This document shows positions 821 through 38,478 of a DNA stretch of 64,000 nt, in pieces. Under the pieces are notes generated by a model, which worked only from the letters and a program-made list of their open reading frames with translations, ran no database searches and was not told the origin of the DNA. The position numbers were made by a program, and so were the translations under genes. The stretch is taken from positions 216,229 through 280,228 of the forward strand of contig JAQTZF010000001.1 in assembly GCA_028687915.1 (NCBI GenBank). The letters are read 5' to 3'. This stretch comes from Candidatus Daviesbacteria bacterium (lineage in GTDB: Bacteria; Patescibacteriota; Microgenomatia; Daviesbacterales; UBA10151). Each line of letters starts with the position of its first letter. Positions within the stretch are counted from its first letter, which is position 1.

Positions 821-864
821 TGAATAAAGTTTAACTTTTAATTCACATTCTTAATCTTCGAAGG

Positions 865-890
865 GCCGCCTCAAATCAGGCGGTTTTTTA
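865..890 (+). terminator. Rho-independent terminator-like hairpin between nusA and infB
   Basis: CCGCCT/AGGCGG 6-bp stem (866-871 / 878-883), loop CAAATC, followed by TTTTTT (884-889). Confidence 0.5.
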
Positions 891-961
891 TAACTACGAA
901 AGTAGTTACAAGACTCTGACAGTGTAAACTGGCAGAGGAATTATTTTTAAAGGAGAAAAAT

Positions 962-2416
962 ATGTCAGAACAATTAAGACCACCAGTAGTAACAATTTTA
1001 GGCCATGTTGATCATGGAAAAACTACCCTGCTCGATTATATCCGCAAAACCAGAGTAGCAGCTGGAGAACACGGTGGAATTACCCAGGCTATTGGTGCTT
1101 ATCAGGTGGAAGCTGAAGGGAAACTAATTACTTTTATTGATACCCCAGGGCATGCTGCTTTTGAAAAAATGAGATCCAGAGGAGCGGAAGCTGCTGATAT
1201 TTCAGTGCTTGTGGTGGCAGCAGATGATGGAATAATGCCACAAACAATAGAAGCTATTAAACATATCCAAAAAGCACTTACCCCTATGATTGTGGCTGTT
1301 AATAAGGTTGATTTATCAGGACTTGATATTAAAGCCACTGTAGAAAAGATTAAAAGACAACTTTCTGATCAAAAAGTATTGGTGGAAGAATATGGGGGAG
1401 ATGTACCAATTGTACAAATTTCTGCCAAAACAGGGGCAGGTGTGCCTGAACTTTTGGAAACCATTAATTTAGTAGCAGAAATGAATGAATTTAAGAGTGA
1501 TCCAGAAAAACCAGCCACTGGTGTAATTCTGGAAGCTAATTTGGATAAATCCAAAGGGTCTGTAGCTACAGTATTAGTTAGAAACGGATCTTTAAAGAAA
1601 GGTGATGTAATAAAAGCCGGAAATTCCAGTGGAAAAGTTAGGGGAATGTTTAATTTTGCAGGAAAACCTTTAGATGTAGCCCTACCTTCTACTCCGGTTG
1701 AAGTTTTAGGCTTTGAAACAGTGCCAGCAGTAGGTTCACGGGTTAATGAGGCAGAGGAAGAAAAAGAAGAAGCTAAACGTAAGTTTTCCAGCCTTGTTGA
1801 TAAATTAAAAAATAACCAGGAAGAATTATTAACTGTGGTAATTAAAGCTGATAAACAAGGATCAGTAGAAGCTGTCAGAGATATTTTGGAAAAATTAAAT
1901 CTAGAAAAAGAACATTTGAGAATTATTTCAGCTGGAACAGGTGATATTACAGATTCAGATGTGGAAATGGCCCAGGGAGCTAAGGGGATTGTAATTGGAT
2001 TTAATGTGAAAGTAGTACCAACTGCACAAAGAATAGCTGATCAGGAAAGAATCTTAATCAGACTTTATAACATTATTTATGAATTAGCAGATGAGATGGA
2101 AGATGTGGTAGAAACAATGTTAAAGCCAGGAGTGGTGGAAGAAGTTTTTGGCAGGGCTCAAATTATTGCAGAATTTCCTTATGGAAAGGATGAAAAAATT
2201 GCAGGATGTAAAGTGGTTGAAGGAGTAATTTCCAAGGGTCCAAAAATCAGGATTGTTAGAAAAGATGAAGTTGTTTATGAGGGTAAATTAAAATCAATTA
2301 AAAAGGTTAAAGATGAAGTACCAAAAGTAGAAAAAGGAACAGAATGTGGCATGATGTTTGATCCCATCTTTGATTTTCAAATTGGAGACATTATCGAATC
2401 TTTCAGAGTTTACTGA
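962..2416 (+). CDS. infB: Translation initiation factor IF-2, short form (484 aa; GTPase plus domains II/C1/C2 only, no N-terminal region)
   Basis: [13 protein letters not shown]-loop, DTPGH, NKVD motifs. Follows nusA as in the canonical operon. AGGAG Shine-Dalgarno at 949-955. Confidence 0.9.
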   Translation: MSEQLRPPVVTILGHVDHGKTTLLDYIRKTRVAAGEHGGITQAIGAYQVEAEGKLITFIDTPGHAAFEKMRSRGAEAADISVLVVAADDGIMPQTIEAIKHIQKALTPMIVAVNKVDLSGLDIKATVEKIKRQLSDQKVLVEEYGGDVPIVQISAKTGAGVPELLETINLVAEMNEFKSDPEKPATGVILEANLDKSKGSVATVLVRNGSLKKGDVIKAGNSSGKVRGMFNFAGKPLDVALPSTPVEVLGFETVPAVGSRVNEAEEEKEEAKRKFSSLVDKLKNNQEELLTVVIKADKQGSVEAVRDILEKLNLEKEHLRIISAGTGDITDSDVEMAQGAKGIVIGFNVKVVPTAQRIADQERILIRLYNIIYELADEMEDVVETMLKPGVVEEVFGRAQIIAEFPYGKDEKIAGCKVVEGVISKGPKIRIVRKDEVVYEGKLKSIKKVKDEVPKVEKGTECGMMFDPIFDFQIGDIIESFRVY

Positions 2417-8288: not shown

Positions 8289-8987
8289 ATGTTGAAGGGG
8301 TTTTTCTCCAAAGAAAAAATTATACTTGGAACCTTAATCTTGGTTCTTTTAAGTCTTATCTCTTTTATATTTTTTCGTTTTCAGTTAACAGAAAATGGTT
8401 TGGTATCAGCCAAAGGGTTGTATGCCGGTATGCAGAGGAGTTTAAGTCCGTCGCAGGCATATATCACTCTGGATAAAGATAATCTAAAAATTGTATTTAA
8501 AATTACTAACGCTGATAAACAAGTATTTGCAGAATTTTTAAAAAGTGTTGGAATTAAAAATTTTGAGGAACAGGAAATAAACATTAAATTTGCTGATCAG
8601 AACGGAGAAGAGTTGAATAAAATATTGCGTAAAAATAATTTAATTTCAGATGAAACCACAAAAGTTAGTTTAAATTTAAAGATTTTGACTAAAGAAATAG
8701 ACTTTGATAATAAAAAAGTATTTGGACCATTTGATTCTGTAGCAGAAAATTTATTGGAAAATCCAAGTGATGCAGGCAGTATTAGAACTGAAGCCTTAGG
8801 GGGATCTGGCTATTTGGTGGAAATTGATAATCCGGAAAAAGTTTTAACAGAAGGAACTTTATCTGGTAAATTAAAATTATCAGAAAACTTAGTAGATTCT
8901 GGATGGTGGCAAGTTGTGACTAAATTAGCTAAAATTAATTTGAAGATACAAGATGGTGTGCTTACAGGTGCATTTATCTTAAAATAA
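8289..8987 (+). CDS. Hypothetical protein with an N-terminal transmembrane anchor
   Basis: Hydrophobic segment ILGTLILVLLSLISFIFF near the N-terminus. No known motif. Confidence 0.5.
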   Translation: MLKGFFSKEKIILGTLILVLLSLISFIFFRFQLTENGLVSAKGLYAGMQRSLSPSQAYITLDKDNLKIVFKITNADKQVFAEFLKSVGIKNFEEQEINIKFADQNGEELNKILRKNNLISDETTKVSLNLKILTKEIDFDNKKVFGPFDSVAENLLENPSDAGSIRTEALGGSGYLVEIDNPEKVLTEGTLSGKLKLSENLVDSGWWQVVTKLAKINLKIQDGVLTGAFILK

Positions 8988-8989
8988 TT

Positions 8990-10033
8990 ATGGATCAAAC
9001 TGCCCAACCAAACGATAATTTCTCCAAACTAAGACAGAAAATTAAAGACAATAATTTACCAGCAAATTTAGTTGAAAAACTAAATGATGAGCTGGACCGT
9101 CTGCAAAAAATGGTAGCAGCAACAGGTTATAAGTTTGAGTTTGATAAAGTGTTTGAGTATATAAATTTTGTGGCCTCATTACCTTTTAATAATTCCAGCC
9201 AGGATATTTTGGATTTAAAACGAACAGAAGCAATGTTAAATGAAAATCATTATGGCTTGAATATAGTCAAAGAAAGAATTTTAGAATATATGTCAATTTT
9301 AATATTAAATGCCAATAAAGGAGAAAAACTTCGTTCTCCTATATTATCTTTTGTAGGGTTAGTTGGATCAGGTAAAACATCAATTGCTTATTCTATAGCA
9401 GAAAGCATGGGACGAAAAATTATCAGAATTCCTTTTGGAGGACTAAGTTCTGTGACAGATTTAAGAGGTCAATCAAGAGTTAACGCGGATGCGGAACCAG
9501 GGTTATTAATGAAATCAATTATGAGAGAAGGTGTAAATAATCCTGTAATATTATTGGATGAAATAGACCGAGTAGCCACAGAATCACGAGCAGATTTAAT
9601 GGGGGTTTTGGTGGAGCTTTTGGATCCTAATCAAAACTTTGCCTTTATTGATAAATATGTGGATTTTCCATTTGATTTATCAAAAGCTTTATTTATAGCC
9701 ACAGCCAATAATACAGGTAATATTGCTACAGCAGTACTTGACAGAATGGAAATGATTGAGATGCCAGGCTATTCTGACGAAGAAAAAATTGTTATTGCTA
9801 AGAAATACTTAATGCCAAAGATTATAAAATCAGCAGGATTACCAGACAATACAATAATAATTGATGAAGCGTTATGGCCCCAGATTGTTAGGCCTTTAGG
9901 GTTTGACGCCGGAATCAGGTCATTGCAACGTAATATCGAGACTATTGTTCGTAAAGTTGCTAAACAAGTAGTAGAGGGTAATGCGGGCCCCTATAGCTTA
10001 ACAGCGGAAAATGTAGGAAAATATATAGGTTAA
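8990..10033 (+). CDS. Lon-like AAA+ ATPase module (helical linker plus AAA+ domain) with no LON N-terminal domain and no S16 peptidase domain
   Basis: Collinear with E. coli Lon residues ~250-585: HYGL..VKERILEY, Walker A GLVGSGKTS (Lon GPPGVGKTS), Walker B VILLDEIDRV, sensor-1 ATANN, and …GIRSLQRNIETIVRKVAKQ compares with AGVRGLEREISKLCRKAVKQ. ORF ends at the point where the Lon protease domain would begin. The stop overlaps the rnj start. Confidence 0.7.
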   Translation: MDQTAQPNDNFSKLRQKIKDNNLPANLVEKLNDELDRLQKMVAATGYKFEFDKVFEYINFVASLPFNNSSQDILDLKRTEAMLNENHYGLNIVKERILEYMSILILNANKGEKLRSPILSFVGLVGSGKTSIAYSIAESMGRKIIRIPFGGLSSVTDLRGQSRVNADAEPGLLMKSIMREGVNNPVILLDEIDRVATESRADLMGVLVELLDPNQNFAFIDKYVDFPFDLSKALFIATANNTGNIATAVLDRMEMIEMPGYSDEEKIVIAKKYLMPKIIKSAGLPDNTIIIDEALWPQIVRPLGFDAGIRSLQRNIETIVRKVAKQVVEGNAGPYSLTAENVGKYIG

Positions 10034-11736
10034 TGAAATCATTTTTACCAAATTTTAAATCTAATCAAGGACAAGTAATCCAACATCAGGGACTTAGAAT
10101 CATCCCCTTAGGTGGGGTTGGTGACGTGACCAAAAATATGTATATCTATGAGTATGGCCGTGACATTATCATCATTGATTGTGGTGTTGGTTTTCCGGAC
10201 GAAGCTATGTTGGGAGTAGATTTGGTTATTCCGGATATTTCCTATTTAAAGGATAAAGTTGACCGAATTAAGGCAATTATTATTACTCATCCACATGATG
10301 ACCATATTGGAGGATTAGTATATATCTGGCCAGAACTAAAGTGTCCAATTTATGCGACCAAGTTAGCAGTTGGTTTTATTAAAAATAAATTTAATGAAGC
10401 TAAATTACCAAAAGATCCAATTCATATAATTGATCCGGAAAACAAATTAAACTTGGGAGCTTTTGGAATATCATTTTATCGGGTCTCACATTCTGTGCCA
10501 GATTCAGTGGGAATTGTCATTGATACTCCTGGTTCAAGAGTCATTCACCAATCAGATTTTAAATTAGACTGGACTCCAATTATTGGTAAACCAACGGAAA
10601 TTGCAAAAATTGCCAGGTTTAGTGAAGATGGCATTGATTTATTGCTTATTGATGCATTGGGATCAGAAAAGAAAGGCTACAATGAGCCAGAGATAAATAT
10701 TTTACCAACATTCAAAAAGATTGAAGAGGAAACTGAGGGGAAAATATTATTAACCACAGCAAGTTCCAATATCAGTCGTATTCAGATGGCAATTAATGTA
10801 GCAAGTGATGCAGGACGAAAAGTAGCTTTGGTGGGTCGTTCTATGGAAAGTAATTTTCAAGTTGCCAGAGACCTTGGTTATTTACATATTCCACCAGGCA
10901 TAATTATTGCTCAGGAAGAGGTTAAAAGGTTTCCTGATAATAAATTATTATTAATCATTGCAGGTTCTCAGGGTCAACCAGGTTCAGCTTTGTCCAGGGT
11001 TGCTAATAATGATCATAAACATGTATTTCTTAAAAAAGATGATACAGTTATCTTTTCTGCCGATCCAATTCCCTCAACAGAAACTGCTCAACATGCCTTG
11101 ATTGATAAATTAGCCAAAATGGGAGTAGATGTCAGGTATAAAGAAATGGAAGATGCTTTGCATGTTTCTGGACATGAAACAGCAGAAGAAATTAAGATGA
11201 TGATCAATATAATCAGGCCAAAAGCTTTGGTTCCAATTGGGGCAACTTATCGGGGAATGATAGCTTTTTCTAAATTGGCAAAAGATTTGGGCTATACTGA
11301 AAAACAAATTCTTTTAGCTGAGGATGGGCAAATTATTAACCTTGTTTCAGGTGTCTCTCGTCTTGAGGGTAGAATTGATGTTCGAAATATTTATGTTGAT
11401 GGATTAGGGATAGGAGATGTGGGAAATGTTATATTAAGGGACAGAAAAGTGATGTCTGAGGAGGGAATAGTATTGGTAATTGTTCCTGTGGATAGTCATA
11501 CTAGCCAATTAGTAGGAGAGCCTGATATAGTAACTCGTGGGTTTGTTTTTGAAAGAGAAGCAGAAGAAATGCTGTCAAAAGCACGAAGTGTAGTCAGATC
11601 ATGTTTGGCAGATCATCCTAATGCTATTTTAGATTGGAGATTTACCAGAAGCCATATTGAAGAAAATTTGGATAAATTCTTCTTTGAGGAGTTGCATCGC
11701 AGACCCATGATTCTACCATTAATTGTAGAAGTCTAA
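10033..11736 (+). CDS. rnj: Ribonuclease J (beta-CASP metallo-beta-lactamase RNase)
   Basis: HPHDDHIGG (HxHxDH) motif, beta-CASP architecture, 567 aa. Confidence 0.85.
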   Translation: MKSFLPNFKSNQGQVIQHQGLRIIPLGGVGDVTKNMYIYEYGRDIIIIDCGVGFPDEAMLGVDLVIPDISYLKDKVDRIKAIIITHPHDDHIGGLVYIWPELKCPIYATKLAVGFIKNKFNEAKLPKDPIHIIDPENKLNLGAFGISFYRVSHSVPDSVGIVIDTPGSRVIHQSDFKLDWTPIIGKPTEIAKIARFSEDGIDLLLIDALGSEKKGYNEPEINILPTFKKIEEETEGKILLTTASSNISRIQMAINVASDAGRKVALVGRSMESNFQVARDLGYLHIPPGIIIAQEEVKRFPDNKLLLIIAGSQGQPGSALSRVANNDHKHVFLKKDDTVIFSADPIPSTETAQHALIDKLAKMGVDVRYKEMEDALHVSGHETAEEIKMMINIIRPKALVPIGATYRGMIAFSKLAKDLGYTEKQILLAEDGQIINLVSGVSRLEGRIDVRNIYVDGLGIGDVGNVILRDRKVMSEEGIVLVIVPVDSHTSQLVGEPDIVTRGFVFEREAEEMLSKARSVVRSCLADHPNAILDWRFTRSHIEENLDKFFFEELHRRPMILPLIVEV

Positions 11737-15415: not shown

Positions 15416-16015
15416 ATGAATCAAAAAGGTTTTGCCCTAATTTTGATAATTTTAGGTGTTGCTCTGATTTTAGGCATAGCAGGTGGGGTTTACTATTTAG
15501 GACAAGTATCTGTAAAATTACCAACCTTTCAAACTTCTGTTTCTTCTACTAAGACCCCTGCAAAAACTACCAGTAATTCTACACCCCTTGTTGATGGAGC
15601 TGCTAATTGGAAAACATATCAAAATTCAAAACTAGGAATAGAATTCATGTATCCTTCAGACTATACAATACAACAGATGAGTGATATTAGTGTTGATTTG
15701 TTAGTCCCCTATAGGCCGAAAGGTCAAATAATGGATGTACATATTAAGTTTTTAAGGAAAATAGTTTTTCCAAAAGAAGATATGAAGAAATGTGGTGAAA
15801 AAGAAGACATTGTTTATGATCTTAGATCAACAAATTGTTATAAAGATATTATGATAGGTGGAGTTGCAGGGATAAAATATGCCCAGGGATGGGATAATAT
15901 AATAATTACAGAAAAACCAGAACTTCAAATAATAATAGATGGTGCAATTATTTATAGATTTTCCTATGGAGAAACAATAGATAAAATTCTTTCTACTTTT
16001 AAATTCACAAATTAA
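15416..16015 (+). CDS. Secreted/anchored paralog-family protein (pilin-like leader MNQKGFALILIILGV…, core …NWKTYQNSKLGIEFMYP…, C-terminal …ILSTFKFTN)
   Basis: Shares the N-terminal leader, central motif and C-terminal motif with the paralogs at 31.7-38.2 kb. Confidence 0.6.
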   Translation: MNQKGFALILIILGVALILGIAGGVYYLGQVSVKLPTFQTSVSSTKTPAKTTSNSTPLVDGAANWKTYQNSKLGIEFMYPSDYTIQQMSDISVDLLVPYRPKGQIMDVHIKFLRKIVFPKEDMKKCGEKEDIVYDLRSTNCYKDIMIGGVAGIKYAQGWDNIIITEKPELQIIIDGAIIYRFSYGETIDKILSTFKFTN

Positions 16016-31078: not shown

Positions 31079-31474
31079 ATGTTAGAAGCAAAAATAGTTC
31101 CTGAGAAGTGTATTAGTGTTGGATTAGGAATCTATGACGATAGGCATGTGTTTGAAATGTATGCGAAAAGTAGGCTTACTAGTATAGTAGGACATAAACT
31201 TGGTCCAAACTTAGATCAATTTCAACAGTATACTGCATTGATGGTCAGAGTATTTGAAGGTGAAGTTGTTCCTTATTCAGAAGCACAAGCTTTAGGGCTT
31301 GATCCAAAAATCGCCAGACAAATGGCTATTATCGCTAAAAATAGTTATCGAAAACAAATAGCAACTTTAGAAGCAGTGCTTGATGACTCTCTTTATCCAG
31401 ACAATTCCTCAGAGTTTGCAGATCGGGGTCAAGATTCAGAAAAGTATATTGAATGGCGCCGATATTGTCCTTAA
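31079..31474 (+). CDS. Hypothetical cytoplasmic protein (131 aa), first gene of the island between rpsG and fusA
   Basis: Intact ORF 11 nt after rpsG. No transmembrane segment or motif recognised. Confidence 0.45.
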   Translation: MLEAKIVPEKCISVGLGIYDDRHVFEMYAKSRLTSIVGHKLGPNLDQFQQYTALMVRVFEGEVVPYSEAQALGLDPKIARQMAIIAKNSYRKQIATLEAVLDDSLYPDNSSEFADRGQDSEKYIEWRRYCP

Positions 31475-31490
31475 TGCTATACTGGTTTTA

Positions 31491-31721
31491 GTGAAAAAAA
31501 CTTCTGCCGGATTTGCTCCTATTTATTTAATAATTATCCTTTTTATTCTTGGGGTAATGGGTGGAGCTTATTATTATGGTAAATCATCTGTTTCTAAAAC
31601 TTCAGTTATTGATTTTAATTCTTGTAAGAAAGCGGGTTATCCAATCCGTTTACTAAATTGTCAAGGATGCCCAAAATATTGTGATACACCATGGGGAGCT
31701 AGTTATTCTGAAAAACAATAA
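31491..31721 (+). CDS. Small (76 aa) protein: pilin-like hydrophobic leader plus a four-Cys mini-domain (C-x12-C-x2-C-x3-C). Proposed GTG start.
   Basis: VKKTSAGFAPIYLIIILFILGVMGGAYYYG leader matches the family leader. GTG at 31491 is the first start in frame after the stop of the upstream gene. The ORF-track start (31380) would overlap that gene by 95 nt. Confidence 0.4.
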   Translation: MKKTSAGFAPIYLIIILFILGVMGGAYYYGKSSVSKTSVIDFNSCKKAGYPIRLLNCQGCPKYCDTPWGASYSEKQ

Positions 31722-31722
31722 A

Positions 31723-32769
31723 ATGAATCAAAAAGGCTTTACAGCCCAAATTATTTTAATAATTGTAGGAATAATAATTTTATTAGTTCTAGGTTATACT
31801 TTTTTAGCAAAACCTTATAAAGTTTATGGTGAAAATATAGCCTTTCCTCCTTATAAAATAGGGCAGCTATCTTTTTCTGAAAAAGTAACATATCTGTTTA
31901 GAAAACCGGCAGTTGGGGATAGAGTTATTTTTTCTCCTTTAGGACAATACTCGAGTTATATTGGAATTATTACCAAAGAAGAAAACCAAAATGGAGTAAT
32001 TATTTATACTATCTGTTCCACAGGGAAAGGGTTTCCCTGGACAGTTTCAATAGAAAAAATTTCCGGGAAAATATATTATCCCGTTTTAGATCAAGATGAT
32101 GCTAAAAGAATTGCAGAATCATTCAATTCTTCTCCTACCACTCCTACTCCAACTCCAATAGAAATGCCAATAAGTTTTGAGGAGACAAAAAAGTGGCCAA
32201 CTTATACTAATACAAAATATGGTTTTTCTATTAAATATCCGGAAAATATGCAATTTAAAGATATTACAGAAGAACCTACTATTAGCGGAATGGATTATAA
32301 AACTGGTGAAAATTCATATGTCCCTTTAAAGGAATACTTTAAATATGCTAAACGCGAATTAATAGTTACTTTTGCAGAACAAAGTAAACTTGATGATAAA
32401 ATGACCCCGATTGTACCCAAAAAGATTACAGATTTTTGGATTTCAGGAATTTCATTGCATGTTCAAAAAGGAGATCAGCAAATAATAGAAGAATATAAAG
32501 ATAAAAAATTAGCTGAAAAGGCAGGGGAGCAACCGCCTTCTCCAGGCCGTAAGCTAGAAATTACAAATATAATAATTAATGGTATTAGTGTGACTAAATT
32601 TTCGGAGATTAAGCATTTTTACACTGACGATTTAGTTGGAGCTTCTGAAGCAATTTGGCAAAAAGACGGATTCGTATATTTATTATCTAATGATTACGAT
32701 ATGGGTTACGGAAATAAATATTTTGATGCAATGCTTTCTACTTTTAAATTTAATGAAAGAACTCCTTGA
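31723..32769 (+). CDS. Secreted/anchored paralog-family protein (348 aa)
   Basis: ATG at 31723 gives MNQKGFTAQIILIIVG…. Core …KKWPTYTNTKYGFSIKYPENMQ…, C-terminus …AMLSTFKFNERTP. TPTPTP linker. Confidence 0.6.
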   Translation: MNQKGFTAQIILIIVGIIILLVLGYTFLAKPYKVYGENIAFPPYKIGQLSFSEKVTYLFRKPAVGDRVIFSPLGQYSSYIGIITKEENQNGVIIYTICSTGKGFPWTVSIEKISGKIYYPVLDQDDAKRIAESFNSSPTTPTPTPIEMPISFEETKKWPTYTNTKYGFSIKYPENMQFKDITEEPTISGMDYKTGENSYVPLKEYFKYAKRELIVTFAEQSKLDDKMTPIVPKKITDFWISGISLHVQKGDQQIIEEYKDKKLAEKAGEQPPSPGRKLEITNIIINGISVTKFSEIKHFYTDDLVGASEAIWQKDGFVYLLSNDYDMGYGNKYFDAMLSTFKFNERTP

Positions 32770-32837
32770 TGTTAGTGAGGAGTATGTAAAAGAATAACTG
32801 ATTGACAATATAAAGCAGTTAAATTAATCTTAATTTA

Positions 32838-33398
32838 ATGATGAAGTTTAGTCCTCTTTTAGGAATCATTGCCGCAATAATTCTAATTGTTGTTGTCTCT
32901 ATCGGTTACTACAACTCTTTTGTAACTCAAACAAATGCTATTGAAGGCCAGTGGAAACAAGTTGAAGTTCAATATCAAAGAAGGGTTGATTTGATCCCTA
33001 ATTTAGTAGCTTCAGTAAAAGGAATTCAACAACAGGAACAAAAGATTTTTGGGGATGTTAGTGCTGCCAGGGCAAATTATACTGGTGCAAAATCCCCCGA
33101 AGAAAAAGTTCAGGCAGCTAATCAATTAGAAGGATCTCTTAGTAGGTTGTTGGCAATTTTTGAAAATTACCCTCAAATAAAAAGTGATCAGGCAGTTATA
33201 AAATTAATGGATGAATTAGCAGGAACAGAAAATAGAGTAGCTGTTGAGAGGAGAAGATACAACGAATTTGTTCAAAGTTATAATACTTCTGTTGGTACTT
33301 TGCCTGGTAAGATCTTTGCTTCATTTATGGGATTTACACCTAAAAGTTATTTTCAAGCTGCTTCTGGAAGTGAAAATGCACCAAAAGTAAATTTCTGA
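32838..33398 (+). CDS. lemA: LemA family membrane protein
   Basis: N-terminal transmembrane segment then …YYNSFVTQTNAIEGQWKQVEVQYQRRVDLIPNLV…, typical of LemA. Confidence 0.8.
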   Translation: MMKFSPLLGIIAAIILIVVVSIGYYNSFVTQTNAIEGQWKQVEVQYQRRVDLIPNLVASVKGIQQQEQKIFGDVSAARANYTGAKSPEEKVQAANQLEGSLSRLLAIFENYPQIKSDQAVIKLMDELAGTENRVAVERRRYNEFVQSYNTSVGTLPGKIFASFMGFTPKSYFQAASGSENAPKVNF

Positions 33399-33404
33399 TA
33401 ATGA

Positions 33405-34331
33405 ATGTTAAATCAAATCCGTAATTTTGTATTCCTAACTCTTGTAAGTCTATTCTTATTTATTGCTCCAAAAGTTTATGCAAATCATATTCCTGCTCCA
33501 TCCGGCCATGTTAATGATTTTGCCGGAGTTCTCACTACTGAACAGAAAAACAACCTTGAAAATTCTTTAATATATTATGAGCAGCAAACTACAAATGAAA
33601 TTGCTATTGCTATAGTTAAAAGTTTAAATGGAGATAGTATTGAAAACTTTGCTGTTAAGACTTTTGAAGAATGGAAAATTGGTAAAAAGGGTAAAGATAA
33701 CGGCATATTATTTATTGCAGCAATAGATGATAGAAAAATGAGGATAGAGGTAGGATATGGATTGGAGCCTTCTTTAACTGATAACCAAGCAGGTGAGATT
33801 ATCAGAAATATTATTGCTCCCAAATTTAAACGAGAAGATTATTACGGTGGAATTTCTGATGGAGTATTAGCTATTGAGGATCAATTAAGCAAGAACCCGG
33901 CAGAGGTAGCAAGGGGACAAGCAAAAGTGACTTTTTGGTCTGTTATTAAAGGGCTTTATGGAATTTTTGGCGATCTAGTGGTTTACGCTCTATTGTTTTT
34001 TACGTATTTACCTTTTTCGTATTTTTTTGCTTTTTTAGCTCGGACAGAGGGAATTTGGTTAGGTGGTATTATTGGTGGGGTAATCGGAGGGATTTTGGGT
34101 TGGATTTTTGGAAGTACATTATCTCCAATTATTTTTTCATTTATTGGAGGTGGAAGTTTAGGGTTTTTGTTGGATTATATTGTATCTAATAATTACAAAA
34201 AAAGAAAAGCAGCAGGGCTTAGCACTAGTTGGTGGAGTTCTGGTGGGGGGTTTTCTACTCACAGTGGCGGAGGGTTTGGTGGATTTGGAGGGGGTTCGTC
34301 TGGTGGAGGTGGATCAAGCGGTAGTTGGTAA
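33405..34331 (+). CDS. TPM-domain (YgcG/TLP18.3-like) membrane protein with a Gly-rich C-terminus
   Basis: …VNDFAGVLTTEQKNNLENSLIYYEQQTTNEIAIAIVKSL…ILFIAAIDDRKMRIEVGYGLE… TPM domain, two transmembrane segments, GGGFGGFGGGSSGGGG tail. LemA-TPM is a conserved gene pair. Confidence 0.75.
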   Translation: MLNQIRNFVFLTLVSLFLFIAPKVYANHIPAPSGHVNDFAGVLTTEQKNNLENSLIYYEQQTTNEIAIAIVKSLNGDSIENFAVKTFEEWKIGKKGKDNGILFIAAIDDRKMRIEVGYGLEPSLTDNQAGEIIRNIIAPKFKREDYYGGISDGVLAIEDQLSKNPAEVARGQAKVTFWSVIKGLYGIFGDLVVYALLFFTYLPFSYFFAFLARTEGIWLGGIIGGVIGGILGWIFGSTLSPIIFSFIGGGSLGFLLDYIVSNNYKKRKAAGLSTSWWSSGGGFSTHSGGGFGGFGGGSSGGGGSSGSW

Positions 34332-34373
34332 ATTAACTTGTCTTATTATCCTGTATAACTTATTATTTAATTA

Positions 34374-35492
34374 ATGCCCAATTCACAAAAGGTTAATATC
34401 CTGAGCGAGTATAACGAGTCGAAGGGTTTTGCACCCATTTTAATAGTTATTTTAATCGCTGTAGCAATTGGTGGATATTTAATATATTCTAACTACTTAA
34501 AGAATCAAACAAAAATTAATGTTCCTCAACAAACTTCTAACACTGAATCAACTAATTCTGGAAAAATTGCTAATTGGGAAACTTTAACACGAAACGATAA
34601 TGAATTTTCTTTTCAATATCCTCAAAATTGGAAATTAGTTCCTACGGATACTTCTAAGAATGGCTATAATTTTGAGTTTGTAGATCCTGATAAAATTTAT
34701 ACGCTCGATTTCTATTCACAATCTAATATTAATAAAGATACTGGCAAACCGTATAAAACACTATTGGAATTTGAGGATTTAGTTTCAGATCAACTTAAAA
34801 TTGTAGTTGATGGTCAAGAAGCTATTCAGGTTATGCCTCGAGCAGGCAGTGAGAACGCAAATTTGATTGATGTTTTTTCCAGAGATTCCACACAAATTTA
34901 TACTCTGAAATTAACTACTAATTCCAAACAGGATGACGCAGCAATTAAAAAAGGTCAAGAATTGTTTAAACAAATTCTTTCTACATTTAGAATTAAGCAA
35001 TTGCAACCTGCTTTTGTAATAAGTAAAGAATCCTTGGTTGGAATTTGGCAAAATGATTTTATGTTAGCAGCAGGTTGGGGAGACCGTTATCAATTTTACC
35101 CCTCTGGTAAATATGCTCATATAGCATCTGAAATGAATAATTGTACAAATACAGATTTAGGTGAAGTAGGCACATGGGAACTAAATAGTAATAAATTGTT
35201 GCTAACTGCTAAGCAAAAGATTATTTTAAAAGTTGCAGGAACAGTAGATGATCCTGCATGCGGACAGAAGGTTGTAGGTGGAGAATCAGCACAAGAAGTA
35301 GCAAATCCCAAAGTGGTTGAAATAGATTTGAGTGCACGCAAACCCCAGGCAAACGAACCATCTTATTATCCTTCTTTATTTTTCGGGAAAAAAGTTTATT
35401 GGAAATTTAATGATAAGTTAAAAGATAATCCGCCTTTTAAAGTTCTCCCTTTTTTAAGTGGTTGTGGACCAGATTTGGACCCATGTTTATAA
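34374..35492 (+). CDS. Secreted/anchored paralog-family protein (372 aa, divergent member with an extra Cys-containing C-terminal region)
   Basis: Leader …ESKGFAPILIVILIAVAIGGYLIY, core …IANWETLTRNDNEFSFQYPQNWK…, …FKQILSTFRIKQ motif in mid-protein. Confidence 0.55.
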   Translation: MPNSQKVNILSEYNESKGFAPILIVILIAVAIGGYLIYSNYLKNQTKINVPQQTSNTESTNSGKIANWETLTRNDNEFSFQYPQNWKLVPTDTSKNGYNFEFVDPDKIYTLDFYSQSNINKDTGKPYKTLLEFEDLVSDQLKIVVDGQEAIQVMPRAGSENANLIDVFSRDSTQIYTLKLTTNSKQDDAAIKKGQELFKQILSTFRIKQLQPAFVISKESLVGIWQNDFMLAAGWGDRYQFYPSGKYAHIASEMNNCTNTDLGEVGTWELNSNKLLLTAKQKIILKVAGTVDDPACGQKVVGGESAQEVANPKVVEIDLSARKPQANEPSYYPSLFFGKKVYWKFNDKLKDNPPFKVLPFLSGCGPDLDPCL

Positions 35493-35500
35493 AATAATAT

Positions 35501-36595
35501 ATGAATCAAAAAGGATTTGCTCCAATAATTATAATTCTAGGAATTGTTTTTACAGTTATAGGAATTGGGGGGTATTTCTTATTGTCAAATAAAAACTTTG
35601 TAAAATACTCACCCACAAACGAAATTTCTCCTACTCCTACTGTTGCAATACAATCTTCTTCCGATGTGATCTGTCCAGCTAATGCAGTAGTGACTTTTGG
35701 TTACGATACCACATATTTAACTCCTGCTCCACAAGATCCAAATCAAGTATGCAAGTTTTCTATTACTGTAGATAATGTCTCGGATTTAGTTCAAGAAATA
35801 AATCAAGCTAGCAAATACCCAAACCTGAAGATATTTAACATTCAAGGACCATCTGGAGGAGAAAAAACAGTATTTATGCCACCTGAAATATGGCAATTAA
35901 AAAATTTGCAATCCTTAAACATAGCATATGTAGAATTTAAAAATAGCACACTACCTGCTGAAATTAGTAATGTAAGTAATCTTAAACGTTTATCTGTATA
36001 TGGTTCTAATATTAGTTCTATTCCACCACAAATTAGTCAGCTTACACAGTTAACATACTTAGATTTTGGAGCAAATAATATCACAGTTCTTCCACCAGAA
36101 ATTGGAAGTTTAAAGAATTTAGCAACACTTAACTTATTTCATAACGAATTAAACTCTTTGCCTGATTCGATCGGTAATCTACAAAATTTGAAAAAACTTG
36201 TTTTGTCTAACAACTCTTTTTCTATATTTCCTGAAGTGTTAACGAAACTCAATGGTCTTGAGGAGCTTAATATGAATCAAAATCATTTAGCTTCAGTTTC
36301 TCTTCAGATAGGAAATATGAATCATCTGAAAAAACTTTCATTAAATAATTGGCCTAACCATGCCTCTGCAGCTTGTGGTGGAGCAGTCTGTCAAACAGAT
36401 CTTAAACAAGATATGGAGAATGGAAATAAAATATTAACTTTCCCTGATAGTATTGCTCAAATGTCTTCTTTATTGGAATTGGATTTAAGCAATGTTTCAA
36501 CACCGGTTGAAGTAATAAACCATCTTAAGCAAATACTACCAAAAACTACAATTAAGTTTGATCCTCCTGGATCTTATAGCAACTATCCTAAATAA
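35501..36595 (+). CDS. Paralog-family protein carrying a leucine-rich-repeat (LRR) array (364 aa)
   Basis: Leader MNQKGFAPIIIILGIV…. At least 8 tandem ~23-aa LRRs of LxxLxxLxLxxNxLxxLPxxIgxLxx type (…LKNLQSLNIAYVEF…LPAEISNVSNLKRLSVYGSNISSIPPQISQLTQLTYLDFGANNITVLPPEIGSLKNLATLNLFHNELNSLPDSIGNLQNLKKLVLSNNSFSIFPE…). Confidence 0.7.
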   Translation: MNQKGFAPIIIILGIVFTVIGIGGYFLLSNKNFVKYSPTNEISPTPTVAIQSSSDVICPANAVVTFGYDTTYLTPAPQDPNQVCKFSITVDNVSDLVQEINQASKYPNLKIFNIQGPSGGEKTVFMPPEIWQLKNLQSLNIAYVEFKNSTLPAEISNVSNLKRLSVYGSNISSIPPQISQLTQLTYLDFGANNITVLPPEIGSLKNLATLNLFHNELNSLPDSIGNLQNLKKLVLSNNSFSIFPEVLTKLNGLEELNMNQNHLASVSLQIGNMNHLKKLSLNNWPNHASAACGGAVCQTDLKQDMENGNKILTFPDSIAQMSSLLELDLSNVSTPVEVINHLKQILPKTTIKFDPPGSYSNYPK

Positions 36596-36629
36596 TTTGT
36601 ATGTATAATTTTGTGATAAGATTTAGTTA

Positions 36630-37241
36630 ATGCTAAAGGAAAAAGGCTTTGCACCAATAATTATAATTTTAGGAATTGTTTTATTTTTAGGTATAGTTGG
36701 TGGAGTGTATTATTTTAGTAAAAATTCAAGTAGTGCTATAAAAAATAATCCTGTAAATACCCCAACCCCAACTGCAACTCTAAAGGTAGATGAAACAACT
36801 AATTGGAAAACTTATACAAATACGGAATATGGATATTCAATAAAATATCCAGAAAATATTTCCTTAGAAGAAATGGGTGTGGATGTAAAAGGTAAACTAG
36901 TTAAATGGATTTGGATTGATAAACAAATCCAAATTTCTGTTACTAAAGCGAATTCTTCAGAATGCAAAGTAGATTGTCCGATTATTTCAAAGATAGAATC
37001 TGTTAAAATCGATAACACAGAGGGGAAAAAGCAGAGTGGTTATATTAGTCAAATAGGAGGGCGTATACCTCAGTCTTTCCAACAGGTTATTATCCCACAC
37101 AATGGTAGCTATTTTAATATTTCCCTCTATGAATTAAAAAATGATAGTATAAAGAGCTCTGAAAGAAAGGCGGGTACAATCACAGAAGCGGAAATTAAGC
37201 TTTTTAATCAAATTCTTTCTACCTTTGAATTTACTAAATGA
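36630..37241 (+). CDS. Secreted/anchored paralog-family protein (203 aa)
   Basis: MLKEKGFAPIIIILGIVLFLGIVGGVYYF leader, TPTPT linker, …TTNWKTYTNTEYGYSIKYPENIS…, …FNQILSTFEFTK C-terminus. Confidence 0.6.
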   Translation: MLKEKGFAPIIIILGIVLFLGIVGGVYYFSKNSSSAIKNNPVNTPTPTATLKVDETTNWKTYTNTEYGYSIKYPENISLEEMGVDVKGKLVKWIWIDKQIQISVTKANSSECKVDCPIISKIESVKIDNTEGKKQSGYISQIGGRIPQSFQQVIIPHNGSYFNISLYELKNDSIKSSERKAGTITEAEIKLFNQILSTFEFTK

Positions 37242-38167
37242 ATCAAAAGGGTTTTGTTCCAATAATTATAATTCTAGGAATTGTTTTATTTTTAACGATT
37301 GTTGGTGGTGCTTATTATTTTGGAAGAATGACTATAAAAGGTAAAATCTTAGACTATAACTCGATGCCTTTTGATAATCCTAATTTAGAAATTAAAGGAA
37401 TTAATGGCTCTTTTGGTAAATGTGAAGTTAAAAAGACAGGGAATTTTATTTGTAAAGCCCTATTATTGCCAAATCAAACTTATGGTATTTATTTAAATGA
37501 TGACAAAACTAATGCTTTTGTTCTTCAACATTTTACTGCTGAATTTGCAAAAATAGTTGATATAGGAGAGAGACAAGTACCAAGGACTAGTGAACCACAA
37601 GCCACTAGTATAGATGAAACTGCTGATTGGAAAACTTATACCAATACTAAATATGGTTATTTAATTAAATATCCCGAAAAATTGAAGATAAGAGAAAGAG
37701 GGAGTTTGAGTCCGTCATTGATTGATAGTTTAGATATATGTTTGAAGGAAAGTTGTGGTGACCCAGATATTATATCTGTTAACGTTATAACCAAAGAATT
37801 TGCATTAGGATCACTTAATAATCCTTCGATTAGCAAAGAAGAAATTACCATTAGCAATATTAAAGGTATAAAGAAGGTAGGTGAATATCATTACGGAAAA
37901 GAAATTATTGTTTATTTCCCTGCGCCTAATGGAGCTAGTTATGTAAATATTGGTACGAATAGTCAAAATGCACAAATTTTTGATACTATTCTTTCTACTT
38001 TTAAATTTACAGACACAAATTCAGGAAGTGGGAAATATACTTGTCCAGAAAATGGATATCAAAATTGTATGCCAATTTTAGATGCGGAAGGACAAAAACA
38101 ATGTAGCAAAGAAGCATTAGATTGGAAGCAAACTAATTGTCCCAATTTTTCAGGTGCGGCATATTAA
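37238..38167 (+). CDS. Secreted/anchored paralog-family protein (309 aa, the family domain preceded by a small N-proximal domain)
   Basis: MNQKGFVPIIIILGIVLFLTIVGGAYYFG leader, …TADWKTYTNTKYGYLIKYPEKLK…, …FDTILSTFKFTDTN… motifs. Start overlaps the previous gene by 4 nt. Confidence 0.6.
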   Translation: MNQKGFVPIIIILGIVLFLTIVGGAYYFGRMTIKGKILDYNSMPFDNPNLEIKGINGSFGKCEVKKTGNFICKALLLPNQTYGIYLNDDKTNAFVLQHFTAEFAKIVDIGERQVPRTSEPQATSIDETADWKTYTNTKYGYLIKYPEKLKIRERGSLSPSLIDSLDICLKESCGDPDIISVNVITKEFALGSLNNPSISKEEITISNIKGIKKVGEYHYGKEIIVYFPAPNGASYVNIGTNSQNAQIFDTILSTFKFTDTNSGSGKYTCPENGYQNCMPILDAEGQKQCSKEALDWKQTNCPNFSGAAY

Positions 38168-38213: not shown

Positions 38214-38222
38214 AAGCAAGTA

Positions 38223-38246
38223 GGCCTCCTTCAAGAGGCTTTTTCT
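38223..38246 (+). terminator. Rho-independent terminator-like hairpin at the 3' end of the paralog island
   Basis: GGCCTC/GAGGCT stem (38223-38228 / 38235-38240, one G·U pair), loop CTTCAA, then TTTTTC. Confidence 0.45.
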
Positions 38247-38253: not shown

Positions 38254-38478
38254 ATGGATGCAAAACTGAAAGCAGAAAAACTGAAAATGTGGCAGGGAAA
38301 ACTCAAAAAACTCCAAGATGAGTTGGAAGCTATCATGGTCAGACGCGGGGAGGCTATTGCTATGGGTGATTTATCAGAAAATGCTGCTTTTTCTATGGCT
38401 GAAGAAGATGCAATTACCTGGAGAGTCAGAATTGAAGAGATTGAAAAGATCATTAAAACCATTGAGGATACTAAATAA
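38254..38478 (+). CDS. GreA/GreB N-terminal coiled-coil domain-only protein (74 aa), a mini-Gre factor with no C-terminal FKBP-like RNAP-binding domain
   Basis: …[39 protein letters not shown]… aligns to E. coli GreA 22-75 (…[33 protein letters not shown]), including the tip acidic D and E. The TAA stop overlaps the fusA ATG (TAATGG). Confidence 0.6.

Follow-up and report, generated by a model that had tools for sequence, protein, structure and literature searches.

The LRR proteins LIC10831, LIC11098, LIC12759, LIC12234 and LSS01692 of Leptospira interrogans and L. santarosai (PDB 4u06, 4u08, 4u09, 4tzh and 7yjw) are built from 23-residue leucine-rich repeats (LRRs) of the form LxxLxLxxNxLxxLPxEIGxLxN. 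They carry cleavable or lipoprotein signals, their repeats are very regular, and they belong to large families in a pathogen. The same repeat length and consensus are found in the Ras-group proteins SHOC2, Rsu1, LRRD1, LRRC40 and PIRL and in bacterial Roco proteins, which act in the cytosol as scaffolds or form part of multidomain GTPases. The internalins InlA and InlB of Listeria possess surface LRRs on a cell without an outer membrane, and bind host proteins through the concave face. Internalin repeats are 22 residues long and SDS22-like, and are accompanied by a helical N-cap, an Ig-like inter-repeat domain and a C-terminal LPXTG or GW anchor. The Leptospira proteins are exported and reported to bind host molecules (PMC11629876, PMC11674859).

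Here we describe an LRR protein encoded in a window of 64,000 nucleotides, the whole stretch of DNA analysed, from Candidatus Daviesbacteria (CPR/Microgenomates). The literature searched contained nothing relevant on LRR proteins in Patescibacteria. Similar to the Leptospira proteins, which are about 23-25% identical to it in structural alignment, this protein possesses 23-residue repeats, but it differs from them in a CPR-type hydrophobic anchor, an N-cap with cysteines, a 29-residue cysteine-containing loop and in having only one known relative. Unlike the Ras-group and Roco proteins, it is predicted to be membrane-anchored and extracytoplasmic, contains paired cysteines, and lacks Roc/COR or any other domain. 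The internalins are a functional analogy for what the protein may do, but their SDS22-like repeats, helical N-cap, Ig-like domain and LPXTG or GW anchor are all absent from it. The nearest analogy for its N-terminal leader is given by class III cargo and modular type IV pilins (PMC4371748, PMC8179133), such as the Sulfolobus bindosome proteins and PilB/PilC of Streptococcus sanguinis, in which a K/R-G head and a hydrophobic helix are placed on non-pilin binding domains. The CPR leader differs from these in lacking Glu+5, a match to N-methylation models in the Pfam and NCBIfam scans, a pilin module and adjoining pilus genes. We consider it probable (roughly 0.7) that the protein is a type-II-like membrane protein with a tethered extracellular LRR binding module, whose leader was acquired locally.

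Gene and protein layout

The ORF list contains exactly one ATG-to-stop ORF for this gene. Its product is 100% identical to the NCBI entry PHQ59_01350 (hypothetical protein, Candidatus Daviesbacteria MAG) on a 1,096,538-bp contig, and a Logan contig carries the same gene call. The GC content of the gene is 0.32, and that of the window 0.35. The gene is organised as follows:

35501..36595, + strand: complete gene of the LRR protein, 364 aa
35501..35515, + strand: N-region MNQKG, residues 1-5, from the alignment; its final K-G is invariant in the leader family
35516..35587, + strand: hydrophobic helix FAPIIIILGIVFTVIGIGGYFLLS, residues 6-29 (about 24 residues), predicted membrane anchor; AlphaFold2 helix at 7-31
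35588..35656, + strand: Pro/Thr/Ser-rich linker, residues 30-52 (about 25 aa), predicted disordered, pLDDT below 50 at 27-49
35657..35824, + strand: N-cap domain, residues 53-108 (about 55 aa), with Cys58 and Cys84, from AlphaFold2 and the alignment with the homolog P0002
35825..36541, + strand: nine LRRs, residues 109-347, from Pfam, the repeat table, the AlphaFold2 strand period, Foldseek and phmmer
36353..36439, + strand: loop inserted in repeat 8, PNHASAACGGAVCQTDLKQDMENGNKILT, residues 285-313, with Cys292 and Cys297, from the P0002 alignment
36542..36592, + strand: C-terminal strand and tail KTTIKFDPPGSYSNYPK, residues 348-364, with an AlphaFold2 strand at 350-352

The N-cap is modelled with strands at 63-67 and 83-89 and a helix at 93-103 (pLDDT 71-93 as means of 10-residue blocks), and pLDDT is low at 288-293 in the repeat-8 loop. 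The protein contains four cysteines in total, two in the N-cap and two in this loop. Inspection of the sequence and the Pfam scan revealed no LPXTG motif and no further domain at the C-terminus (...DPPGSYSNYPK). A sequence-only reading of this DNA had the repeats follow a leader shared with neighbouring genes; the leader is present, but the linker and the N-cap lie between it and the first repeat.

Leucine-rich repeats

Four Pfam models match the protein above their cut-offs, namely LRR_14 (E 4.7e-25, 88.5 bits, cut-off 40), LRR_8 (1.2e-16, 60.7 bits, cut-off 27), LRR_4 (6.2e-16, 58.5 bits, cut-off 27) and LRR_1 (3.8e-9, 35.4 bits, cut-off 20.6). A relaxed LxxLxLxx[N]xLxxL pattern occurs seven times, compared with 0.52 +/- 0.71 (maximum 4) in 2000 shuffles, and five of the matches, at 161, 184, 207, 230 and 253, are exactly 23 residues apart. 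The AlphaFold2 model, made from a 34-sequence alignment, is a solenoid of nine LRR turns and a terminal strand (pLDDT 82.8, pTM 0.81). It has short beta-strands at 111, 138, 163, 186, 209, 232, 255, 278, 326 and 350, and a short helix comes after every one of them; seven are spaced at 23-27 residues (111-255), one stands at 278 and two lie past the loop (326 and 350). With the Pfam thresholds exceeded and a solenoid predicted, the protein is assigned to the LRR superfamily, and the earlier description of it as an LRR protein with the consensus LxxLxxLxLxxNxLxxLPxxIGxL holds.

The repeat lengths are 27 aa for R1, 25 for R2, 23 for each of R3-R7 (residues 161-275), 48 for R8 and 24 for R9. The length of R8 is explained by the inserted loop. 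R3-R7 display (I/L)P(P/D)x(I)(G/S)xL, and R1, R2, R8 and R9 are irregular. At least eight tandem repeats of 22-24 aa had been proposed; there are nine turns, of which just six units (R3-R7 and R9) fall within that length. TRF detected no tandem copies at the DNA level in the LRR region, and the repeats are old.

Every one of the best 50 Foldseek matches in the PDB is an LRR solenoid with a probability of 1.00. LIC10831 is at the top (9e-16), together with LIC11098, LIC12759 and LSS01692 (TM-score 0.60-0.73), and SHOC2 comes next. Overall, the Leptospira proteins give the best Foldseek (9e-16 to 5e-13) and the best PDB sequence matches (6.8e-75 to 2.7e-58), with phmmer values of 6.8e-75 for LIC11098, 2.2e-66 for LIC12759 and about 1e-52 for SHOC2. 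Rsu1 (about 1e-30), the Roco protein of C. tepidum (1e-9, Foldseek), and PIRL and LRRC40 (up to 173 bits) were also matched. Judged by length and consensus, the repeats are of the 23-residue class of the Leptospira LIC, SHOC2 and PIRL (Ras-group) proteins.

Other LRR classes were considered and rejected. The repeats had been taken as typical of adhesins, internalins and effectors, but at 23 aa they are not of the class of internalins, with 22 aa, or of the YopM/IpaH/SspH/SlrP effectors, with 20 aa, and InlA comes no higher than rank 42 in Foldseek. The best matches in sequence and structure are LIC, SHOC2, LRRD1, Rsu1, PIRL and Roco, instead of internalins or YopM/IpaH/SspH. Membership in the internalin family was likewise discarded, as no internalin N-cap or LRR-adjacent model was found by Pfam at E<=0.1, the repeats have 23 residues and LPXTG is absent. 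Among NCBIfam effector models, XopL scored 84 bits (cut-off 600), XopAC 78 (450), XopAE 69 (500), SlrP 31 (1113) and SspH2 14 (1243), with only LRR portions aligned. The PHROGs family phrog_6688 matches residues 93-354 (E 3e-39). By tblastn it corresponds to LRR genes of Leptospira phages and of a 462-kb uncultured phage at 29-36% identity, and the match reflects the same LRR class and not a specific relationship.

The homolog P0002

The sole full-length homolog of the LRR protein is P0002, with 44% identity. It keeps the N-cap motif CPxN..YDTTY(L/I)T..P.DP..VC, the repeat-8 loop (SNSANEECGTSVCQ...) and the C-terminal tail (NTKIDFDTPEPLSNYAK). P0002 also possesses exactly four cysteines, all homologous in position to those of the LRR protein and arranged as two close pairs. 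Its N-terminal anchor is different from the leader of the LRR protein, and it has two TM helices; an alternative start giving a single-TM anchor was sought, and no in-frame start codon was present. A strongly positive loop, TKWNKKIK, precedes its last TM helix, which places the LRR body of P0002 outside. The genes adjoining P0002 encode CPR-type PsbP-like proteins.

With a profile of residues 50-118 plus P0002, P0002 was the only homolog of the N-cap recovered among 1.84 billion representative proteins; five other multi-stretch matches are presumably repetitive or of low complexity. Among 5.8 billion clusters there was likewise a single N-cap homolog. As to hypervariability of the concave face, 12 of 28 residues (43%) at putative positions of this face are identical between the LRR protein and P0002, close to the overall 44%, a comparison that is uninformative with two sequences only.

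The leader family

In the window, residues K4, G5, F6, I9, I11, G23 and G24 are invariant in the leaders of five ORFs, and two more variants of the leader are present at 31491-31721 and 31723-32769. The proposal of a shared family leader is thereby confirmed. The LRR protein shares only residues 1 to about 28-30 with its window paralogs, along with a linker of similar composition; the Pro/Thr/Ser linker of P0002 resembles it as well. The domain common to the paralogs is PsbP-like (NWKTYTN..YP...ILSTFKFT) and is absent from the LRR protein, as in the Pfam scan PsbP_2 was detected in gene 34374 (E 1.9e-8) and not in the LRR protein.

Across 185,579 species genomes, the pattern K-G-F-A-P-I-[ILFM]-I has 49 exact matches. 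About 41 of the 49 are located at the N-terminus of an ORF, and 40 of these ORFs were taken into further analysis. The records with N-terminal matches are titled as CPR groups (Daviesbacteria, Woesebacteria, Gottesmanbacteria, Microgenomates, Saccharibacteria, WWE3 and Parcubacteria groups), and several are titled just 'bacterium' or 'uncultured Gammaproteobacteria'. Matches in Nitrosomonadaceae, Alphaproteobacteria, Eubacteriales and one Gammaproteobacteria record were discarded as internal chance matches. In the 40 CPR leader proteins the start codon is usually 2-7 residues ahead of KGF, and the median length of the hydrophobic run, 23 residues, exceeds that of the usual Sec h-region. Besides LRRs, the leader precedes GH39, peptidase M64, BNR/sortilin, DUF3160, TIG and PsbP-like cargo. 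The leader (KGFAPI(I/L)I...GG.Y) is a general CPR N-terminal module that heads at least 40 unrelated proteins. No Pfam or NCBIfam model matched over it, and no paper describing a KGFAP or class III-like signal in CPR was found in the literature searched. A plain anchor does not account for the strictly conserved K-G-F where the helix starts, a point against the anchor model.

Possible traces of local exchange are present in the DNA of the leader. Over codons 8-16, all nine triplets agree with those of gene 37238 (9/9) and eight with those of gene 36630 (8/9), including the rare ATA and CTA, with a chance of about 7.5e-4. BLASTN aligned 35495-35550 with 37232-37287 at 91% and 35508-35550 with 36640-36682 at 93%. 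The likeness to the neighbours ends at about nucleotide 50, and the remainder of the LRR gene has none. Given this codon identity, and the different anchor of P0002, leader swapping, or some module exchange onto the LRR gene, appears plausible. The domain shuffling proposed earlier would thus survive as an exchange of modules, but not as an LRR grafted onto the scaffold of a paralog family: the PsbP-like domain is missing and only an anchor of about 28 residues is common. Because this shared part is a general CPR anchor, the direction would be that of a leader put on an LRR body.

Genomic context

The LRR gene is located in an island of genes on the same strand, with the following content:

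31079..38167, + strand: island of about 7.2 kb, mostly envelope genes, between rpsG and a greA-like ORF and fusA
within the island, + strand: 131-aa ORF, no match
31491-31721, + strand: 76-aa Cys-rich leader protein
31723-32769, + strand: S26-like plus PsbP-like leader protein
32838-33398, + strand: LemA
33405-34331, + strand: TPM
34374-35492, 36630-37241 and 37238-38167, + strand: PsbP-like proteins
15416..16015, + strand: leader-bearing PsbP-like paralog of 199 aa, outside the island

Seven of the ten island genes possess the leader or a variant of it, and LemA and TPM, beside the leader genes, are also predicted membrane proteins. In the related genome L050 the same site, with flanks 86-88% identical, measures 1.8 kb and contains four small leader genes, and the LRR gene is absent. 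The LRR gene is therefore accessory at this locus. PADLOC defence-system models did not match the LRR protein or seven of its neighbours.

Proposed function and alternative readings

In the model that we prefer, of a tethered extracellular binder, the short MNQKG head would stay in the cytoplasm, and the hydrophobic helix of about 24 residues would serve as an export signal that is uncleaved, or at least anchoring. A flexible Pro/Thr/Ser stalk of about 25 residues would follow, and the LRR horseshoe of about 310 residues would be presented on the outer face of the membrane. The LRR domain is probably stabilised by one disulfide in the N-cap (Cys58-Cys84) and another in the loop of repeat 8 (Cys292-Cys297). 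Its concave face may bind a protein or peptide ligand, as in other LRR horseshoes, for which a surface component of the host organism of the CPR cell, or a partner in its own envelope, would be candidates. The LRR gene would have taken a local copy of the leader by recombination or duplication in a variable envelope-gene island within the str operon.

The analysis shows the LRR fold and repeat class, the architecture, the distribution and codon identity of the leader, the presence or absence of the gene at this locus and the rarity of the family; from these and the points below we infer the membrane topology, the disulfide bonds, a leader that stays uncleaved and a role in binding. An external position of the LRR protein is favoured by the paired homologous cysteines, the Pro/Thr/Ser linker, the exported-type cargo of other leader proteins and the topology of P0002. 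CPR genomes are enriched in enzymes that form disulfides in exported proteins (PMC6744442). No small-x-small site could be read from the sequence after the hydrophobic helix. The helix also contains no cysteine, hence no lipobox, and the first cysteine of the protein is residue 58, so that a bacterial lipoprotein was rejected. From the primary structure we infer a leader that is uncleaved and N-in. The simple positive-inside argument is weakened by the leader family having more K/R after the helix (mean 2.35 per 15 residues) than before it (1-2). The stalk is so short that the LRR may not reach past a cell wall or S-layer, which may count against a long-range adhesin role.

The leader could instead be a class III, prepilin-like signal cut by a PilD-type peptidase after Gly5 (MNQKG|FAP...), with KGFAP cargo passed on to type IV pilus-like machinery or kept in the membrane as pilin-like proteins; we regard this as a possible but unlikely reading. 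Its layout is that of type IVa prepilins, with a short charged head ending in K-G, then F and about 23 hydrophobic residues. MNQK-G|F-APIIIILGIV... has Gly at -1 after K, a hydrophobic +1 and a hydrophobic stretch, as in class III signals. Gly is moreover the most conserved position in divergent leaders (KGL, KGI, HGF, CGV, KGN), and a subfamily with long leaders (...SERSES-KGFAP) recalls those of type IVb. PilD is widespread in CPR (PMC6744442), and archaeal non-pilin proteins with class III-type signals are known (PMC4371748). Against these points, position +5 is Ile and lacks the Glu needed for bacterial pilus assembly, +3 is Pro, a disordered linker comes after the helix where a pilin globular domain would be expected, and no class III-like signal in CPR was reported in the literature searched. 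T2SSE, T2SSF and Peptidase_A24 are absent from the 25 listed families with at least two members among 113 neighbours of 39 leader loci, and no model of N-terminal methylation or prepilin cleavage was listed by Pfam at E<=0.1 or NCBIfam at E<=1. The models expected for prepilins, Pfam PF07963 N_methyl and NCBIfam TIGR02532, were presumably present in the copies searched. We give somewhat less credit to a joint reading of the leader as a CPR-specific sorting signal cut at Gly-Phe and spread between surface-protein genes as a mobile cassette of about 50 nt, prepilin-derived or convergent and without Glu+5; the LRR cargo would then be an adhesin that recognises the host in a strain-specific manner, encoded in a rapidly evolving island of the str operon. 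The Pam pilus, described in a preprint, has Sec-signal Ig-like pilins and is unrelated to the LRR protein.

An ordinary cleaved Sec signal peptide, with the LRR protein released in soluble form to target a host cell as an adhesin or effector, is quite improbable. In its favour, the closest relatives that have been characterised are the LRR proteins of Leptospira, which are secreted or surface-located and bind host molecules (PMC11629876, PMC11674859), and the NCBIfam models of three Xanthomonas type III effectors, XopAE, XopAC and XopL, gave partial matches in their LRR portions. These matches fall far short of the thresholds (for XopL, 84 bits where 600 are required) and cover LRRs only, no NEL domain (the E3 ligase of IpaH, SspH and SlrP) or other effector domain is present, and P0002, with its two TM helices, does not fit a secreted protein. 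Cleavage by Sec also conflicts with the hydrophobic run of about 23 residues, the Lys/Asn directly after it and the missing small-x-small motif. It is hardly credible that the LRR module was recently gained from a eukaryote or a host-associated pathogen and mimics Ras-group LRR proteins of a host. Plant PIRL, vertebrate LRRC40 and SHOC2 are among the best database matches besides P0002, but they cover 30-70% of the query at 27-41% identity and are intermixed with cyanobacterial, Bacteroidota, Asgard and metagenomic proteins, as is usual for consensus-like LRRs. The GC of the gene, close to that of the window, also speaks against such a gain, as do the N-cap and C-tail, common only to P0002 with its CPR-type PsbP-like neighbours.

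Implications

The LRR protein is of an ordinary kind, and the organism that encodes it, a tiny uncultured CPR bacterium, is an unusual one; taken alone, LRRs joined to a membrane anchor are unsurprising. The CPR/Patescibacteria presumably spend their lives attached to other microbes, and their means of recognising partners are largely obscure. The predicted membrane-tethered LRR binder would be a reasonable candidate for partner-specific recognition or for envelope scaffolding. Its gene is present in one genome and missing from the same locus of a close relative, and the databases searched contain a single homolog. Of wider reach is the leader, which is short, highly conserved and placed on at least 40 unrelated exported proteins of several CPR classes. 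If its processing were solved, it would give a simple sequence rule for the surface proteome of uncultured CPR bacteria.

The leucine-rich repeat protein

A single ATG-to-stop open reading frame (ORF) fills positions 35501-36595 (+) exactly and encodes 364 amino acids (aa). In NCBI the identical protein (100%) is PHQ59_01350, annotated as a "hypothetical protein" in a Candidatus Daviesbacteria MAG on a contig of 1,096,538 bp, which assigns the window to a CPR/Microgenomates genome. The gene order around it recurs on an independent Logan contig, and its GC content (0.32, window 35%) is ordinary for the window. The sequence-only reading had described a leucine-rich repeat (LRR) protein that carries the leader of a local gene family, and this observation was confirmed by the ORF, Pfam, AlphaFold and the leader alignment. 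The protein is organised as follows.

Organisation of the LRR protein
Residues 1-5: head, MNQKG
Residues 6-29: hydrophobic helix (7-31 in the AlphaFold2 model)
Residues 30-52: Pro/Thr/Ser-rich linker (pLDDT <50)
Residues 53-108: N-cap, two strands and one helix in the AlphaFold2 model
Residues 109-135: repeat R1, 27 aa
Residues 136-160: R2, 25 aa
Residues 161-275: R3-R7, 23 aa each
Residues 276-323: R8, 48 aa, including a 29-residue inserted loop
Residues 324-347: R9, 24 aa
From residue 348: terminal strand

Pfam matches to LRR_14 (E 4.7e-25), LRR_8 (1.2e-16), LRR_4 (6.2e-16) and LRR_1 (3.8e-9) exceed the curated cut-offs, and a relaxed LRR pattern occurs seven times, five of them at exact 23-residue spacing, against 0.52 +/- 0.71 in 2000 shuffles. 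AlphaFold2 with a 34-sequence alignment (pLDDT 82.8, pTM 0.81) gave ten short strands at 111, 138, 163, 186, 209, 232, 255, 278, 326 and 350, and the strand/short-helix period of 23 residues is visible even in the single-sequence model. The best 50 Foldseek matches in the PDB are all LRR solenoids, each with a probability of 1.00. No DNA-level tandem repeats were found in the LRR region. The claim of at least eight repeats of 22-24 aa stands as to number, with nine turns, and fails as to length, as only six fall in that range; nor do the repeats directly follow the leader, from which the linker and N-cap (residues 30-108) separate them. Cysteine occurs at four positions only, residues 58 and 84 of the N-cap and residues 292 and 297 of the R8 loop, and the short C-terminal tail contains no sorting motif.

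Repeat class and relatives

Repeats are 22 aa long in internalins, 20 aa in YopM/IpaH proteins and 23 residues in the Leptospira/Ras-group class. The best matches in the PDB sequence search were the Leptospira LRR proteins LIC11098 (6.8e-75), LIC12759 and LIC10831, and the best folds in Foldseek were the Leptospira structures 4u06 (9e-16) and 7yjw, with TM-scores of 0.60-0.73. Behind them ranked LRRD1, SHOC2, plant LRR receptor ectodomains, LRRC8, Rsu1 and a Roco LRR. These matches and the repeat length place the protein in the 23-residue Leptospira/Ras-group class, outside the internalin and YopM/IpaH classes: InlA appears at rank 42 and lower in the Foldseek list, and the Pfam scan found no internalin-specific domain. 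The NCBIfam models XopAE, XopAC, XopL, LIC_11051, SlrP and SspH2 match the LRRs only, with scores far under their cut-offs. Tested features of the LRR superfamily and of the 23-residue class are present; those of internalins, of IpaH/YopM-type or Xop effectors and of lipoproteins were not found.

Among 5.8 billion clustered proteins a single full-length homolog was detected, P0002 (432 aa, assembly GCA_041643115.1), with 44% identity across 98% of the query; the databases searched hold no ortholog above this identity. P0002 keeps the N-cap motif CPxN..YDTTY.T..P.DP..VC, the R8 loop (CG..VCQ), the C-terminal tail and all four cysteines, and has no others. An exhaustive search of 1.84 billion representatives with the N-cap profile recovered these two proteins only. 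The combination of a CPR-type anchor, a Cys-bearing N-cap, nine LRRs and a Cys-bearing loop is thus far known from two sequences only.

All remaining matches are confined to the LRR part (30-70% of the query, 27-41% identity) and are a mixture of plant PIRL, vertebrate LRRC40, SHOC2-like, cyanobacterial Roco-type, Bacteroidota, Asgard and unnamed metagenomic proteins. Eukaryotic sequences are among them, and the mixed, LRR-only pattern does not argue for a eukaryote or a pathogen as the source of the gene; a recent eukaryotic origin is unlikely. PADLOC gave no match, and phrog_6688 of PHROGs matches residues 93-354 (E 3e-39). The PHROGs and phage matches reflect LRR genes of the same class in Leptospira phages and huge phages. 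Such genes of the 23-residue class, at 29-36% identity, are present in LE1-like Leptospira phages (KF114878.1 5793-6728, KF114877.1) and in LR756500.1, a 462-kb uncultured phage with 14 matching places.

The leader in the window and its proposed exchange

The leader or a close variant opens seven ORFs of the window.

Leader ORFs of the window, by start coordinate
15416: outside the island described below
31491: GTG start, 'MKKTSAGFAPIY...'
31723: 'MNQKGFTAQII...'
34374: leader begins at residue 17
35501: LRR gene
36630
37238

Five of the six other ORFs encode a PsbP-like domain (Pfam PsbP_2 match, or the motifs NWKTYTN..YP and ILSTFKFT), and the sixth, 31491, encodes a small Cys-rich protein. 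Neither PsbP_2 nor its motifs were found in the LRR protein, which shares with the paralogs about 28 residues and a linker of similar composition. The LRR protein is therefore not built on the scaffold of these paralogs, contrary to the earlier proposal, and the tested features of the PsbP-like family are absent from it.

At codons 8-16 (PIIIILGIV) the LRR gene and gene 37238 have the same DNA sequence, and eight of the nine codons also match gene 36630. The matches include two ATA (18% usage) and one CTA (8% usage), and under window codon usage the chance of nine identical codons for the same peptide is 7.5e-4. In BLASTN the 5' ends align over 43-56 nt at 91-93% identity, and past about nt 50 of the LRR gene no similarity to the neighbouring leader genes was found. 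The anchor of P0002 differs entirely, with two hydrophobic helices separated by TKWNKKIK and no in-frame alternative start. The codon identity, the 5'-limited similarity and the different anchor of P0002 support exchange or duplication of the leader segment between genes, although part of the DNA similarity could stem from strong selection acting on the N-terminal motif or the 5' mRNA. Domain shuffling, as suggested from the sequence, thus survives in reduced form, as a small anchor cassette placed on an LRR body; with it stand the LRR and the leader, whereas the paralog scaffold and the internalin/effector repeat class were given up.

The leader in other CPR genomes

A scan of one genome per species (185,579 species) for K-G-F-A-P-I-[ILFM]-I followed by three hydrophobic-type codons gave 49 matches in 46 stretches. 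About 41 of them form the N-terminus of an ORF product, mostly 2-7 residues behind the start codon, and 40 of these proteins were analysed further. Five matches (Nitrosomonadaceae, Alphaproteobacteria, Eubacteriales and one Gammaproteobacteria record) were internal chance matches. Record titles of the 40 name Daviesbacteria, Woesebacteria, Gottesmanbacteria, Microgenomates, Saccharibacteria, WWE3 and several Parcubacteria groups; others read only "bacterium", "Patescibacteria group bacterium" or "uncultured Gammaproteobacteria". The contigs with the last title (TPA_asm MAG; L007, L010, L016, L019, L022, L031, L036, L039, L042) encode typical CPR-style leader proteins and may be taxonomically mislabelled. 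Few copies of the exact motif occur per genome, with a concentration in Microgenomates.

The 40 proteins range from 78 to >697 aa and show no relationship outside the leader. Pfam detected PsbP_2 (8), Sortilin/BNR, DUF3160, peptidase M64, DUF5050, GH39 and TIG, and the majority had no match. The leader is thus a general N-terminal module of exported or anchored proteins in parts of the CPR. No Pfam or NCBIfam model matched over it, and literature searches gave no description of it. The hydrophobic run following it has a median of 23 residues, often ends in GG.Y and is usually followed by Lys or Arg, which is the first charged residue in 35 of the 40 proteins. The next 15 residues (mean 2.35 K/R, 1.2 D/E) are more positive than the head, which is odd for an N-in anchor.

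In a long-leader sub-family, 11-18 residues ending in ...(L)SE(R/Y)(S/N)ES precede KGFAP (window 34374-34430; two genes of stretch L008; L047; L050 10001-10060). Acidic, Ser-rich residues immediately before K-G are unusual for a Sec n-region.

Genomic island in the str operon

The LRR gene lies in a densely packed, same-strand island of ten genes and 7.2 kb (31079-38167), where the intergenic gaps measure -4 to 68 nt and those next to the LRR gene 8-42 nt. This island is bordered by rpsL-rpsG on one side and, on the other, by a 74-aa GreA_N-like ORF abutting fusA-tuf-rpsJ; a terminator-like hairpin follows it (38222-38241). Nine of the ten products are predicted membrane or exported proteins, including the 76-aa Cys-rich leader protein, an S26-like plus PsbP-like leader protein, LemA, TPM, three PsbP-like leader proteins and the LRR protein. 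The 131-aa ORF 31079-31474 had no Pfam, PADLOC or PHROGs match.

Further observations concern single genes of the region.
31491-31721 (+): small leader protein (76 aa) with a Cys-rich C-terminal segment, as in a 99-aa protein of L050 (9006-9305 (+)); translation begins at GTG 31491, and the longer N-terminus of the published gene call is therefore probably an error
31723-32769 (+): 348-aa leader protein in which a segment weakly matching signal peptidase S26, in its N-terminal part (E 1.3e-4), is joined to a C-terminal PsbP-like domain; by eye, GENIAFPP stands where the catalytic Ser motif is expected, and it may be an inactive peptidase-like fold
38254-38478 (+): 74-aa ORF with the GreA/GreB N-terminal coiled coil only, ending at the fusA start codon and kept in L050 (10774-10998)

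The frame rpoBC-rpsL-rpsG ... greA-like-fusA-tuf recurs in a related Microgenomates genome, L050, with flanks of 86-88% DNA identity. In L050 the slot (8960-10770) is 1.8 kb with four small leader genes, against 7.2 kb and ten genes in the window, and LemA, TPM and LRR genes are absent from this locus. The interval from rpsG to greA-like/fusA is thus a variable slot. The 228-aa gene of L050 (10001-10687) is a mosaic of three window genes: its N-extension resembles 34374 (34374-34440), its middle 36630 (36642-36850) and its Cys-rich C-terminus (KYTCPENGYQNCMPIL...NCPNFSGAAY) 37238 (37995-38167). This points to duplication and recombination among leader genes. Because the L050 locus lacks the LRR gene and contains this mosaic, and no ortholog in the databases searched exceeds 44% identity, the gene is accessory and its slot recombines.

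Leader genes also adjoin fusA or tuf in one Woesebacteria, one Gottesmanbacteria and two other CPR genomes (L026 ~800-2300 (-), L029 4410-7269 (-), L030 153-6319 (+), L044 4391-6420 (-)), and the Woesebacteria order S12-...-leader gene-EF-G matches the window. Linkage of envelope genes to the str operon is recurrent.

Predicted topology and function

The leader helix would insert into the membrane and remain as an anchor, with the ectodomain outside the cell on a short flexible stalk, probably with two disulfides, and the concave LRR face would bind a protein or peptide ligand. An outside location is favoured by the strongly positive loop before the last transmembrane helix of P0002, the two conserved close Cys pairs, the P/T/S linker and the exported-type cargo on other leader proteins; extracytoplasmic disulfide-forming enzymes are reported as enriched in the CPR (PMC6744442). 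In the flank behind the helix K/R residues are more abundant than in the head, which calls for caution with the predicted topology.

The main rival is a class III, prepilin-like signal cleaved after Gly5. K-G-F opens a long hydrophobic stretch, divergent relatives conserve Gly more than any other residue, a long-leader sub-family exists, PilD is widespread in the CPR (PMC6744442), and archaea offer a precedent with non-pilin cargo (PMC4371748). However, position +5 is Ile instead of Glu and +3 is Pro, no N-methylation or prepilin model came up in the Pfam and NCBIfam scans, the LRR protein lacks a pilin module, and leader genes show no linkage to pilus genes; we consider such processing rather improbable. 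Cleavage as a Sec signal, with release of the LRR protein, is likewise unlikely.

The reported host ligands of Leptospira LRR proteins are glycosaminoglycans, integrins and cadherins (PMC11629876, PMC11674859). By analogy, the LRR protein of the window may work like an internalin or a Leptospira LRR adhesin. The stalk of ~25 residues may be too short to pass a wall or S-layer, and a host ligand is no more plausible than a putative partner in the envelope of the cell itself. More interesting than the LRR protein itself are two by-products of its analysis, a leader conserved in the CPR and a variable island of envelope genes within the str operon.
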